From the NCBI GenBank assembly GCA_044224525.1, contig JBGAKI010000004.1:20820-84819 (forward strand): a stretch of DNA of 64,000 bases, in the 5' to 3' direction. Positions 54,985 to 61,301 of this stretch are shown here, piece after piece. Numbering within the stretch: position 1 is the first letter of the stretch; every line of letters starts with the position of its first letter. The notes under the pieces were generated by a model that made no database searches, was not told where the DNA came from, and saw only the letters and a program-made list of their open reading frames with translations. Made by a program: the position numbers and the translations under genes. This DNA is from Polyangiales bacterium. GTDB taxonomy: Bacteria; Myxococcota_A; Polyangia; Polyangiales; CBDCBC01.

Positions 54985-56022
54985 ATGTCGACAACCTCAT
55001 CTCCAATGGAAAATAAGCTCATTTTTGTGATCTCGCCGCCACGTTCCGGTTCAACCTTGCTACAGCGATTGTTGGGCTCGCATACCGAGATCATGACGCA
55101 CCCTGAACCGCACCTGATCACACCAATGGCCTATTTGGGTTACTACGACCGCGTCGAAAAAGCGCCCTATGATCATATCAATGCTGCAGAGGCGCTGAAA
55201 ACCTTCGTGAGCCATCTGCCTCAACAAGAAGAAGATTATCTAGACGCCTTACGTGCCTATAGCGACACGATGTACGCGCGTTTGCTCGACACAAAAGGTA
55301 AGCGCTATTTTCTTGATAAGACGCCCGCCTATGCGTTGGTCGCGCCTTTTTTAACCAAGCTTTATCCAGGGGCCCATTATATCGTGTTGACGCGACATCC
55401 GCTCGCCATCTTTTCATCGTATGCCAACAGTTTTTTTGAAGGCGATTGGCAGGCCGCTTATCACTTCAACCCGATTGTTGAAAAGTATGTGCGCGCCATC
55501 GCACAACTGCTGCGCGATCAACCTCAGCATTTACATCATGTGCGCTATGAATCGTTGGTTGAAGAGCCTGAAAAGCACGTCAGCCAGATGTTTGCATTCT
55601 TGGGACTCGACCAGCAACTGAATGCTGTTAATTATGGTGCAAACTTTCAGTCGGAAACCAAAGGAATGGGGGATCCGACCGGCGTGCATAAGCATCAGCG
55701 ACCGGTGACCGATTCCGTGGAAGCGTGGGTCAGTGAAGTGGCTGGTGACGAGACACGAAGACGACTTGCCGAGCGGATGCTGCAAGGTGTCGATCCTGTT
55801 GATTTGCAGATGTGGGGCTACACGTATGACAGCGCCATGGCACCGATCCATTACCATGCGGGCGCGGCCCTGTCGGTCAGGCCACGCACGCCACTTAACT
55901 GGTACACCTTCCAACGCAAAGTACTGATGGGATTACGAAAGAATGTTCACAACCGACCTCATGGAAAACTTCTCAAGAAGGTCAAGTATTACTGTGATGT
56001 GATTTTACGCGACACCCATTGA
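54985..56022 (+). CDS. Sulfotransferase
   Basis: PPRSGSTLL (5'-PAPS loop), [13 protein letters not shown] (3'-PAPS), RYESLV; start is 54985 or 55006. Confidence 0.9.
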
Positions 56023-59000: not shown

Positions 59001-61301
59001 ACCACGAAGGTTGGCACAGGCTTGCTGATCCCATTGACCGCTTGCAGATAACATCAGCGCGCAGTTATCGGCAGCGCCCGCTGTTGGCTCGCTGGCCGCC
59101 CAATTGGTGTAGGTATTGGCGCTTGAATCGGCCCATACATAGGTACCCTCGGACGCGATGTCGTTGAGTCCGATCCAACGATTTGAACTAATATTGGCAA
59201 GAATATGTGCGTTTTCAGTCGCAGCTGTGATGGCGTATGTTCCCGTGCTGCCCTCGATTTTTACCAAGTCCCAACCTGTGGCGATCGACTGACAGTTGGT
59301 GCGCGCATTGCTTCGACTTACTGCGGTAGCACAGTAGAAATATTCCGTTGATTGCGGTGTCGATGGAATACCGTAACTGCTCCAGGTGCCGCCGCTACAA
59401 AGCTGCGTGCAGGTTGACGCGGTGTTGGCGTCGACGTTGGTGCAGCTCCAGCCGCTTTCTTCAACGCACGTTGAGCTACAACCATCACCATTGGTGATGT
59501 TACCATCGTCGCACACTTCCGGCGACGCGAGCTTACCGTTGCCGCACACGGGAGGGCCTTCGCAGATATAACCAAAGGTTGTGCCGCAGTTTTGTTGATC
59601 CCAGTTGCCCATCGTGGCCGCGTTGAGCATCACTGCGCAATCGCTTGCGGCATCGGGCTCACCGGCATTCCAGGTGGTGTATGACACCGCGGTGCCACTG
59701 GCCCATTCATAGGTACCCTCGGTGTTGGTGTCGAAGATACCAATCCAGCGATTGGCGCCACCCAAGATGCTTGCCACGTAGGTATTTTCGGTGGAGCCGG
59801 TGATGGTCACAAGGTTCCAGCTCGTGCCCAAGTTGCTGCAGTTGTTGCGCGCACCGCCCCAAGATTGCGCCGTTGTGCAACGATAATACTCCGTTGTGTT
59901 GCTTGTACCGCTACTAAACCATGTGCCACCGGTGCACACCGTTGAACAGACTGATGGGGTGCCCGCGCAGGTATAACCAGCTTCGACCACACATACGTTG
60001 CTGCATCCATCACCGCTGGTGGTGTTGCCATCGTCACAGGCCTCCAACCCAGCAATCGCGCCGTCGCCGCACACAGGTGCGGTCTCAAGCAAACAAGCTG
60101 AGCTACAGCCGTCGCCGTTGGCAGTGTTGCCGTCGTCGCATTCCTCATCGCCTGACGCGCGCAAACCGTTGCCACAAATCGACGGCCCCTCGCAAGTGAA
60201 GGGAATGGTCGACCCGCACGCGATATCATCCCACTGGTAGGGTACACCGTTCCAGTATGAGCCACAACCTTGACCGGGGTTACCGTTGTTGGGTTCGCCC
60301 GTACCCCAGTTAGCGAATGCCGCTGTGCCGCACCCACCCGCAGTTTTTGCAACGGTGGCATCGATCCATTGCCAGCATGATGCCGCGTTTCCATCGGCAG
60401 TGGTGTCACTCATGCCCAAGAACATTGAGCCACCGCTCAAACCATCGGCGCTCCACATGTTGTAAATGGTGGTGTTTTCGGTGTTATCCGACACGACCGC
60501 CAAATCCCAGCCCGCAGCAATCCCCTGGCAGGTCGTGCGTGCATTGGCCCATGTGCGGTTGGTTCGGCAATACACATACTCGCGGGTGCCGATCGCTGCG
60601 GTGCGCGAGTTCGCGCAGTTCGTCAAGTTGGTGCAGGTCGACACTGGGCTGTTGGTGAACGTGTTGGTGCACGTGTAAGGCCATTCAACTTGACAGGTTG
60701 AGCTGCAACCATCGTAGTTGGTGGTGTTGCCGTCGTCGCATTCTTCAGTCCCGCTGACCATGCCGTTGCCGCACCTCACGTCGTCTTCACAGACATAACT
60801 GTTGGTGACGCCGCCACCGCAACCCACCACCGTCCAAGTCACCGCGGTATTTTGTCGCACACAATCGTTTGCGCCCGAGTTGCCCCCAAAAGTGGCATTC
60901 TGATAAAACACAGTTTGAGCATCGCCGCTCCAAATGAAAGCGCCTTCGGTGGTTTGGTCGTTATAACCGATCCACACGTTGTTGCCGCCAGCCGTCGTGC
61001 CATCAAGCGTCTCGACGTAGTTGTCTTCAGCAAGGTTATCGATCGTAACCAATCGCCAATTGCCACCTAACAATGCCGCACAATCAGTCCCTGCGGTCGA
61101 ATACCGCCGCGCCGTATTGCAATAGCGATAATCACGAGATGTGCCGCCCGAGCTGCTATTATAGTAGCTACCCCCGGTACACTGCGCCTGTGCGTGAGTA
61201 ACCACAAAGGCTGAAAGAATGAGCCCAAGCGCACAGAGGCCCTGTGCAATACGTGTAAGGTTTATTAGTGGTGAGTGCATACCAATCCGTTGTCTGGACA
61301 C
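55989..61301 (-). CDS. Secreted multidomain protein: 4 C-type lectin domains, 5 Myxococcus Cys-rich (DUF4215-like) repeats, C25 gingipain-like peptidase, MYXO-CTERM-like tail
   Basis: Signal peptide; WIG..D...EG.W lectin cores; CGNG...CDDGN...DGCS..C x5; [35 protein letters not shown] + TM + RRRR. Confidence 0.88.

Follow-up and report, generated by a model that had tools for sequence, protein, structure and literature searches.

The stretch of DNA analysed here (the window) is 64,000 nucleotides of contig JBGAKI010000004.1 from the Polyangiales bacterium assembly GCA_044224525.1. On its minus strand it carries a gene for a 1770-amino-acid (aa) protein in which four C-type lectin-like domains (CTLDs), interleaved with Cys-rich repeats, are joined to a Peptidase_C25 cysteine protease domain and to a C-terminal tail of the MYXO-CTERM layout. 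An initial annotation, made from the letters of the window, had described the product as a lectin-armed gingipain, that is a surface-anchored and glycan-targeted protease exported independently of type IX secretion (T9SS). We find that the protease family, the lectin array and the T9SS-independent export hold up, while the words gingipain and glycan-targeted say more than the evidence does. The parts of the gene, all with window coordinates verified by translation, are the following.

55989..61301, minus strand: whole gene, a 1770-aa frame read from a GTG (list of open reading frames and translation; stop codon at 55989-55991)
61182..61301, minus strand: probable signal peptide, aa 1-40, read from the sequences of the protein and its homologues
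60783..61181, minus strand: CTLD1 (aa 41-173), with a WIG core and without an EPN/WND-type site (Pfam, motifs)
60693..60773, minus strand: DUF4215/myxo_disulf_rpt repeat 1 (aa 177-203; Pfam, NCBIfam, motifs)
60186..60617, minus strand: CTLD2 (aa 229-372), with EPN336 ... GQGC ... WDD357 (motifs, langerin match)
59991..60176, minus strand: DUF4215 repeats 2 and 3 (aa 376-403 and 411-437; Pfam, NCBIfam, motifs)
59556..59936, minus strand: CTLD3 (aa 456-582), with EPD548/WDQ567 (motifs)
59466..59546, minus strand: DUF4215 repeat 4 (aa 586-612; motifs)
58986..59399, minus strand: CTLD4 (aa 635-772), with EPT738/WDQ757 (motifs)
58896..58976, minus strand: DUF4215 repeat 5 (aa 776-802; motifs)
58530..58847, minus strand: fibronectin type III (Fn3)-like beta-sandwich (aa 819-924; predicted local distance difference test score, pLDDT, 82-94 in the model, and Z 8-9 to fibronectin type III domains)
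58218..58529, minus strand: disordered linker (aa 925-1028; model pLDDT about 30)
57963..58217, minus strand: small, conserved alpha/beta domain without a family match (aa 1029-1113; model pLDDT 83-95)
57483..57905, minus strand: jelly-roll beta-sandwich resembling a carbohydrate-binding module (CBM) (aa 1133-1273; structure search)
57282..57464, minus strand: second beta-sandwich, packed ahead of the catalytic domain (aa 1280-1340; model)
56178..57206, minus strand: Peptidase_C25 catalytic domain (aa 1366-1708; Pfam, model, structure search, profile)
56562..56564, minus strand: codon of His1580, aligned to RgpB His211 (alignments, translation)
56460..56462, minus strand: codon of Cys1614, aligned to RgpB Cys244 (alignments, translation)
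55992..56123, minus strand: C-terminal sorting tail (aa 1727-1770) with GGGC1730, a hydrophobic helix and RRRR (MYXO-CTERM layout, borderline score)

The list of open reading frames, the translation and our reading of the signal peptide agree with the initial annotation: the frame 55989..61301 is intact and forms a single open reading frame, on a strand (minus) that the annotation had left unnamed. An alternative ATG start lies at Met8 (61280), and the database record of the same protein (P0002) starts there and is 1763 aa long. To judge from the residues themselves, the signal peptide is probably cleaved after AQA to give a mature protein beginning with Gln-Cys; the A-x-A-Q-C junction is found again in homologues. 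Pfam assigns Peptidase_C25 (PF01364) to aa 1366-1708 with E 2.4e-64 and 218.4 bits against a cut-off of 23, covering profile positions 1-374 of 374. It also finds Lectin_C (PF00059) in four stretches (E 2.9e-45, 153.8 bits, cut-off 22.6) and DUF4215 (PF13948) in five (E 2.1e-30, 105.2 bits, cut-off 27), and the NCBIfam model myxo_disulf_rpt (TIGR02232) matches in five stretches as well (E 2.9e-65, 215.8 bits, cut-off 20.8). These stretches bear out the four C-type lectin domains and five Cys-rich repeats that had been described. The motifs quoted with them were all located, namely EPN336/WDD357, EPD548/WDQ567 and EPT738/WDQ757 in the last three lectin domains with none in CTLD1, YIGHAG at 1577 (containing His1580), MTCSAG at 1612 (containing Cys1614), GGGC at 1727 and RRRR at 1757.

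We modelled aa 1100-1770 with AlphaFold (AF2) from a 30-sequence alignment (mean pLDDT 85.6, predicted template modelling score, pTM, 0.81). The modelled catalytic part (aa 1363-1712), which has the caspase-like alpha/beta fold known from gingipains, superposes on the gingipain RgpB with Z 38.9 and a root-mean-square deviation (rmsd) of 2.4 Å over 320 aa at 22 % identity, and on Kgp with Z 35.1; separase and CHAT proteases, which are other clan-CD enzymes, superpose at Z 13-17. We also aligned 48 C25 modules from at least eight phyla, made up of the four modules of this genome and 44 from GTDB representative genomes (from 80 loci, the 49 with long matches were taken and five with a stop codon in range were removed). 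All 48 modules carry both His1580 and Cys1614 without variation, and the profile-to-PDB alignment places them exactly on RgpB His211 and Cys244, the catalytic residues of that enzyme. The Pfam match, the superposition, the invariance and the profile alignment together uphold the initial assignment to the C25 cysteine peptidases and the integrity of the His/Cys pair. On the strength of these conserved residues and of the model, the protein is very probably proteolytically active.

The name gingipain fares less well. By fold the domain is nearest to RgpB and Kgp; by sequence it is nearest to PorU. The family profile run against the PDB ranks PorU first (3.2e-53, 184 bits), then RgpB (4.9e-37, 131 bits) and Kgp (2e-19, 73 bits), the single sequence gives the same ranking (8.8e-9 for PorU), and Foldseek orders the structures likewise, with PorU at E 3.2e-24 and RgpB at E 2.8e-17. 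The PorU match of the profile covers PorU residues 272-785, including the domain that precedes the catalytic one, and the structural alignment of PorU to the model spans 493 residues with the preceding domains included (Z 21.0, rmsd 8.1 Å). PorU models are also the top enzyme matches in the NCBIfam search, both below threshold: NF033707 reaches 178.5 of the required 420 bits (aa 1176-1709) and the PorU2 model NF052324 reaches 109.8 of 450. Pfam finds no gingipain haemagglutinin/cleaved-adhesin domain in the protein, and the T9SS tail model TIGR04183 gives no match in it. A gingipain-type prodomain was not recognised; the domains ahead of the catalytic one match the N-terminal part of PorU, and the RgpB prodomain is not among the 50 structure matches listed. 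Because the profile scores PorU above RgpB, and because the module is very common outside Bacteroidota, we find the label gingipain too narrow and use the safe name, C25-family peptidase of a large clade outside Bacteroidota.

The region between the lectin head and the catalytic domain was modelled in a second run (aa 770-1135, mean pLDDT 64). Within it, aa 819-924 form a confidently modelled Fn3-like sandwich, which matches many fibronectin type III domains at Z 8-9. This is the segment that had been called Ig-like from a string of 17 protein letters (not shown), which we located at aa 839; the call was right in kind, and Fn3-like is the more exact description. A linker of about 104 aa (925-1028) at pLDDT of about 30 then splits the head from what we call the chassis. 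The initial annotation had a Ser/Thr/Pro linker here, and a disordered linker does exist; it is not notably rich in these residues, as Ser, Thr and Pro together make up 26 % of aa 880-1080 and the commonest residues are Leu, Ser and Ala. The consensus of a 20-sequence alignment shows it to be weakly conserved. What had been taken for a propeptide-like region proves to be three folded domains, the alpha/beta domain at 1029-1113, the CBM-like domain at 1133-1273 and the sandwich at 1280-1340. The jelly roll of the second of these resembles CBM36 (7ay3, Z 11.0), the carbohydrate-binding domain of BcsB (Z about 11) and domain III of rhamnogalacturonan lyase (RG-lyase; Z 10.4), and in Pfam it has a weak CBM-like match below the cut-off (PF14683, E 0.01). 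For aa 805-1140 no Pfam family was found at E up to 5, and a search of the ESM Atlas with this middle region yielded nothing beyond a cluster without a name at 0.91, a value that chance matches also reach.

The tail has three parts at the extreme C-terminus, a Cys, a transmembrane helix and an Arg cluster: about 12 residues separate GGGC1730 from a hydrophobic helix (model residues 638-670), after which comes RRRR1757-1760. A [GA]GC[AS]V...TM...RRR tail, with TM the transmembrane helix, is common to all four C25 paralogues of the genome and to six related loci, and one relative (P0034) is named a MYXO-CTERM protein by its source. In a search of the genome (99.3 % complete by marker genes) with the MYXO-CTERM model TIGR03901, the tail of our gene scores 19.6 bits alone and 20.3 bits with its neighbours, the cut-off being 20. 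Four other proteins of the genome pass unaided, and the tail of the upstream paralogue was not detected in this search. A looser tail pattern has seven matches in the genome and misses two tails, those of our gene and of a 2594-aa paralogue, because their helices contain polar residues or are short. From the TIGR03901 passes, the matches of the loose pattern and its two misses we estimate the true number of such tails to be near ten, of which four belong to the C25 paralogues.

To process such a tail the genome offers a candidate. One of its four CPBP-family proteins (contig C51, L002:1051-1785) belongs to the myxosortase family, scoring 100.6 bits with Mrt_core against a cut-off of 100. A GspD secretin is present (420.6 bits, cut-off 351). 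T9SS C-terminal domains number zero in this genome, compared with 135 and 54 found by the same search in control genomes of Ignavibacteria and Kryptoniota respectively; SprA (TIGR04189) had no match in the genome, but no control genome gave one in that search either. MrtX has been shown to cleave the MYXO-CTERM of Myxococcus xanthus TraA and to be required for anchoring TraA at the surface (Guo, Haft, Wall; PMC11980579), and a preprint by Haft presents the myxosortase family models (10.1101/2023.06.07.544157). Export independent of the T9SS is therefore well supported, by the zero T9SS tails, the myxosortase-family gene, GspD and the work on MrtX and TraA. By analogy with TraA the protein is likely to be anchored through this tail, and surface anchoring by the MYXO-CTERM/myxosortase route seems to us reasonably probable. 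The myxobacterial anchor of the initial annotation stands as regards its tripartite layout and the presence of a myxosortase-family gene, and its TIGR03901 score is borderline.

We propose that the protein is a surface-anchored C25 endopeptidase whose lectin array, mounted on a flexible linker, brings targets to the enzyme, and we give this chain of events as a whole an even chance of being right. The signal peptide would direct export by Sec, and the disulfide-rich head would fold in the periplasm. The Cys-TM-Arg tail would be recognised and then removed by the myxosortase-family protease of the genome, as for the MYXO-CTERM proteins of M. xanthus. The C25 domain (His1580/Cys1614) would then lie at the surface close to the membrane, together with its CBM-like and beta-sandwich domains, and the array of four CTLDs, spaced by rigid Cys-rich DUF4215 repeats, would hang on the flexible linker of about 100 aa. 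The array would then be the reaching and binding part, delivering extracellular targets to the protease; candidate targets are glycoconjugates, other cells and biofilm matrix. The paralogues would represent different heads on one conserved chassis.

A number of results weigh against this proposal. Two of the CTLD2 ligands are substituted, Gln standing for the mid-loop Glu and Asp for Asn (WDD for WND), and CTLD1, CTLD3 and CTLD4 are without a canonical Ca/sugar site. The hmmscan of the protein itself gave 14.1 bits with TIGR03901 against the cut-off of 20, and the candidate sortase scores 190.7 bits with the MrtC equivalog, slightly below its cut-off of 195. RgpB Asp163, the acidic S1 residue that sets Arg specificity, lies opposite a Ser in the profile alignment but opposite a Glu in the pairwise one, and the loop lengths differ. 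The C25 module terminates many long proteins with dissimilar heads, which is compatible with cis-acting processing. Finally, three related loci (L005, L007, L009) have no flanking gene in common with the window.

The state of the lectin sites bears on what the head may bind. The closest solved relatives of CTLD2 are langerin (E 2.9e-7), CLEC4F, collectin-11 and the mannose receptor (E 3e-7 to 3e-6), and with the Pfam matches this makes the C-type lectin identity that had been proposed genuine. C-type lectins have five established Ca/sugar-site positions with known roles. In the langerin alignment the GEPNN...QGC...WDD of CTLD2 sits on the GEPNN...EHC...WND of langerin, so that three of the five classical ligands are identical in CTLD2. 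EPN is present only in CTLD2 among the four domains of this protein. One explanation that keeps the targeting is that the ligand is not a glycan, and that the CTLDs bind a protein, a mineral or another surface. Many C-type lectin-like domains bind non-glycan ligands, and this explanation fits a head in which CTLD1 has no motif, CTLD3 has EPD/WDQ, CTLD4 has EPT/WDQ and CTLD2 has EPN with two substitutions. It is the strongest of the rivals that we considered, and still an unlikely one. CTLD1 of the 2594-aa paralogue has EPN...E...WND, several other domains of the paralogues have EPN or QPD with W-x-D, and canonical EPN/WND and QPD forms also occur in the sequences of relatives. Because sister paralogues and relatives keep canonical sites, sugar binding is suggested as the ancestral function. 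In CTLD2 itself, the replacing Gln and Asp both retain oxygen ligands.

From these motifs, sugar binding is plausible for the family. For the protein studied here, Ca-dependent glycan binding by any of its CTLDs falls somewhat short of an even chance on the same kind of evidence. The description glycan-targeted was thus overstated, with EPN in CTLD2 alone, accompanied there by Gln and WDD, and no canonical site in the other three domains. Recognition of prey or of eukaryotes, which had been put forward as a possible purpose, is speculation.

How the head and the protease are combined elsewhere is best seen from the relatives, beginning with those of the same genome. It has four C25 paralogues, all with the Fn3-like domain, the chassis and the tail. 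The three besides our gene are as follows.

61503..64000, continuing to G000:C138:86851, minus strand: upstream tandem paralogue, 1483 aa in the database, with three CTLDs and three DUF4215 repeats
G000:C37:22624-30405 (locus L086): 2594-aa paralogue with eight CTLDs and fifteen DUF4215 repeats (doubled repeats)
G000:C37:33085-37212 (locus L085): 1376-aa paralogue with an RTX-like Gly/Asp-rich repeat head and no lectins, on the same chassis and tail; the label RTX-like is a reading of the sequence alone

The upstream paralogue lies on the same strand about 200 bp away. Its CTLD motifs are EPT/WDH, QPD/WSD and NPT/WDD, and its C25 module is 57 % identical to that of our gene. The other two lie about 3 kb apart on contig C37.

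With the whole protein as query, 543 of 8000 scored candidates matched at E up to 0.001; 120 of these matches were listed. Lectin_C, DUF4215 and Peptidase_C25 occur together in 17 of the 120 listed relatives, two of the 17 being the window's own genes. All source-named members among the 17 are metagenome-assembled genomes (MAGs) labelled Myxococcales or Sandaracinaceae, and the NCBI names of the proteins are 'C25 family cysteine peptidase' or 'DUF4215 domain-containing protein'. The initial annotation had raised the chance that the architecture is already described and common; it is recurrent and machine-annotated, and our literature searches found no published description of this lectin-C25 architecture. 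Each of the parts comes from an established family; what recurs, in a small clade of myxobacteria already annotated by machine, is their combination. Two further relatives of about 1000 aa, P0006 (57 % identity) and P0011, have Lectin_C and DUF4215 with no C25 domain on record. Their identity to the head of our protein is 54-57 %, and they are either lectin-only proteins or clipped gene calls.

The C25 module itself is far more widespread. Scanned against 1.84 billion cluster representatives, the 671-aa module matches 11,018 of them at E up to 0.001, and 1,700 at E up to 1e-30. Among the listed matches, which are proteins of about 500-4300 aa, the module commonly reaches the C-terminus. A scan of genome contigs with the single protein gave 30 pattern matches and no relative. 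The scan of GTDB genomes for related loci used a 7-sequence alignment, and here 393 of 445 candidate stretches encode a relative. The best 80 loci come from Verrucomicrobiota, Acidobacteriota, cable bacteria and other Desulfobacterota, Lentisphaerota, Chloroflexota, Latescibacterota and others. Several of the proteins from these loci have no sorting tail, since they end within a few residues of the LLGDPAL motif. Close copies of the module are encoded by cable bacteria (Candidatus Electronema at L012, L014 and L015, Electrothrix at L011), and these form one well-supported group in the tree described below. Among genomes of the same order, 9 of 40 have the module in one to three copies each, a figure that comes from a sample and is not a test. 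All nine are 3.3-6.4 Mb in size, and none of the searched genomes of 7-11 Mb had the module.

A tree of the 48 modules (a quick IQ-TREE search with support from SH-aLRT, a likelihood-ratio test, only) places the three lectin-bearing paralogues in one group (SH-aLRT 99) and joins them with five proteins from Myxococcales MAGs in a group of eight (SH-aLRT 100). Motif counts give three or four CTLD cores for four of the five MAG proteins, together with six or seven Cys-rich repeats; the fifth, whose frame is cut at the start of its locus, shows one CTLD core and one Cys-rich repeat. All five carry the same tail as our protein. The RTX-headed paralogue falls outside the lectin group, at a position among other phyla that the tree does not resolve. 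Since the lectin paralogues group with lectin proteins and the RTX-headed one lies elsewhere, the head appears to be exchangeable on a conserved chassis.

It is conceivable that this chassis works on its own polypeptide. The C25 domain would then act in cis and cut, for example, the disordered linker to shed or mature the head, by analogy with the clan-CD autoprocessing domains of large toxins, and the protein would be chiefly an adhesin or lectin. Such a role would suit a module that ends thousands of long proteins with adhesin-like arrays (SdrD B-like, DUF11, LTD, RTX, lectins), as well as the linker of about 104 aa at low confidence between head and chassis and the existence of Lectin and DUF4215 relatives without C25 (P0006 and P0011). 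Variable binding modules are however also carried by degradative enzymes, so the pattern does not discriminate between the two roles. In the model (pTM 0.81) the CBM-like domain is packed against the catalytic domain, which would fit an enzyme acting on substrates from outside, and the poorly conserved linker shows no conserved cleavage motif in the consensus of the 20-sequence alignment. We consider cutting in cis improbable.

The affinity to PorU described above suggests another role, that of a transpeptidase (sortase) which would trim the C-terminal signal of other surface proteins and attach them to a surface polymer, in bacteria without a T9SS. PorU is the best match of the family profile, its models lead the enzyme matches in NCBIfam, and Foldseek ranks it first. 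The score with the PorU model is nevertheless below its cut-off (178.5 against 420 bits), no T9SS tails were found in the genome, and no conserved partner or cargo gene was seen at the three related loci. A housekeeping sortase would also be unexpected as four paralogues with different heads, each with an anchor tail of its own, and we judge this role quite improbable. Least probable of all is that the tail is a stop-transfer anchor only and the protein acts from the inner membrane facing the periplasm: the hmmscan score below the MYXO-CTERM cut-off and the missed tail of the upstream paralogue would allow it, but every paralogue and relative retains the Cys before the helix, the genome has a myxosortase-family gene, and the periplasm would be an odd place for a lectin array of about 800 aa.

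The proposal of a surface protease served by its lectin array can be extended to the whole set of paralogues. They may amount to a bacterial counterpart of the animal mannose-receptor design wired to a protease, used as a glycan-addressed panel in a small-genome clade of Myxococcota. Arrays of three to eight CTLDs, some of them with canonical EPN/QPD and WND, would be carried on a lipid-anchored C25 chassis, and the heads would differ among the paralogues of each genome (lectin sets of varied motifs, RTX-like repeats). The panel would serve in attack on other cells or in mining the glycoprotein matrix of biofilms. We regard this extension as doubtful.

To our knowledge, C25 peptidases have been studied almost solely as the gingipains and PorU of Bacteroidota. 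The C25 module together with its preceding sandwiches ends more than 10,000 protein clusters in many other phyla, mostly with no T9SS-type tail seen, and for the gene described here both the route (MYXO-CTERM, myxosortase and the type II secretion system) and the aiming part (the C-type lectin array) can be named. If the head binds glycans, the protein would offer a tractable model for the role of C25 proteases outside Bacteroidota, canonical animal-type lectin domains would be shown working in bacteria, and a protease would join the known clientele of the myxosortases. If it does not, this is one more uncharacterised modular surface protease. Should the panel be real, it would be the first Ca-dependent C-type lectin system shown aiming a bacterial protease.

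Downstream of the gene, a sulfotransferase gene converges on it and overlaps its 3' end by 34 bp. The idea of an operon partner was dropped, as L005, L007 and L009 share no flanking genes with the window; L009 also holds a tandem C25 paralogue. Because no neighbour is conserved across these three loci there is no contextual clue to function, and the gene appears to stand alone. A scan of 55700-61700 for promoters and terminators gave counts at or below shuffled expectation. Just one sequencing run contains half or more of the sampled words, and it may be the run from which the assembly was made; the remaining runs have small shares, and no RNA run is listed. Other features of the window are listed here.

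286-4267, plus strand: kdpC-kdpD-kdpE, at the start of the window
5179-6552, minus strand, 6790-7812, plus strand, and 16920-19949, plus strand: long open reading frames of 457, 340 and 1009 aa, to which Pfam assigns no family at E up to 1e-5
9877-14732, minus strand: copper-type cluster (P-type ATPase carrying a heavy-metal-binding domain; multicopper oxidase; outer-membrane efflux protein)
22331-27739, minus strand: type IV pilus assembly cluster with PilM, PilN, PilO, one open reading frame without assignment and a secretin (AMIN, STN, Secretin_N) that was a sub-threshold match in the GspD search
20685-22289: fused shikimate kinase/3-dehydroquinate synthase gene, coming after the pilus cluster
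30777-35750, minus strand: 1657-aa protein that fuses Ser/Thr protein kinase, STAND-type NTPase, TPR, GAF, sigma-54 activator and Fis-type helix-turn-helix parts
36950-38311: separate Ser/Thr kinase gene, with a PALP/ACT enzyme gene between it and the 1657-aa fusion
48781-49383, plus strand: IS200-like Y1 transposase gene (Y1_Tnp)
54979-56022, plus strand: the sulfotransferase gene (Sulfotransfer_3/1)

Among known systems, the protein differs from both gingipains and PorU in head, anchor, export route and phylum. With RgpB and Kgp of Porphyromonas gingivalis (C25; PDB 1cvr, 4ief, 4rbm) it shares the catalytic fold, at an rmsd of 2.4-2.7 Å over 320 aa, and the positions of the His/Cys pair. Gingipains are cell-surface proteases with adhesin-bearing relatives, as we propose for our protein. 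Sequence identity to them is just 17-22 %, and in place of a haemagglutinin/cleaved-adhesin domain and a T9SS C-terminal domain our protein has an N-terminal head of CTLDs and DUF4215 repeats and a MYXO-CTERM-type tail as its anchor. PorU, the signal peptidase/sortase of the T9SS (NF033707; PDB 6za2), is its best sequence match, and the match extends into the beta-sandwich before the catalytic domain. Unlike PorU, however, our protein scores far below the equivalog cut-off, was found in no T9SS context, and has a large lectin head, a membrane tail of its own and four paralogues per genome.

The tail and repeats recall another group of proteins. TIGR02232/DUF4215 Cys-rich repeats are typical of myxobacterial MYXO-CTERM surface proteins. 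A tripartite tail with a conserved Cys, a helix and an Arg cluster is also shared with TraA, which is sorted by MrtX (PMC11980579), and a myxosortase-family gene is present here. The tail of our protein differs in its borderline score, its [GA]GC[AS]V signature and the roughly 12 residues from Cys to helix, and the sortase here is MrtC-like, a little under the cut-off of that model. The cargo differs too, being a recognition receptor for TraA and a protease here.

The head, in turn, recalls the macrophage mannose receptor family and langerin. Tandem Lectin_C domains are found in these receptors and in our protein (four, and eight in the 2594-aa paralogue), the alignment of CTLD2 to langerin and the mannose receptor runs across the EPN/WND region, and animal mannose-receptor-like proteins were among the matches of the whole-protein search. 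In contrast to the animal multi-CTLD receptors, the array described here belongs to a bacterium, has DUF4215 repeats between its CTLDs and mostly degenerate sites, and is fused to a protease.

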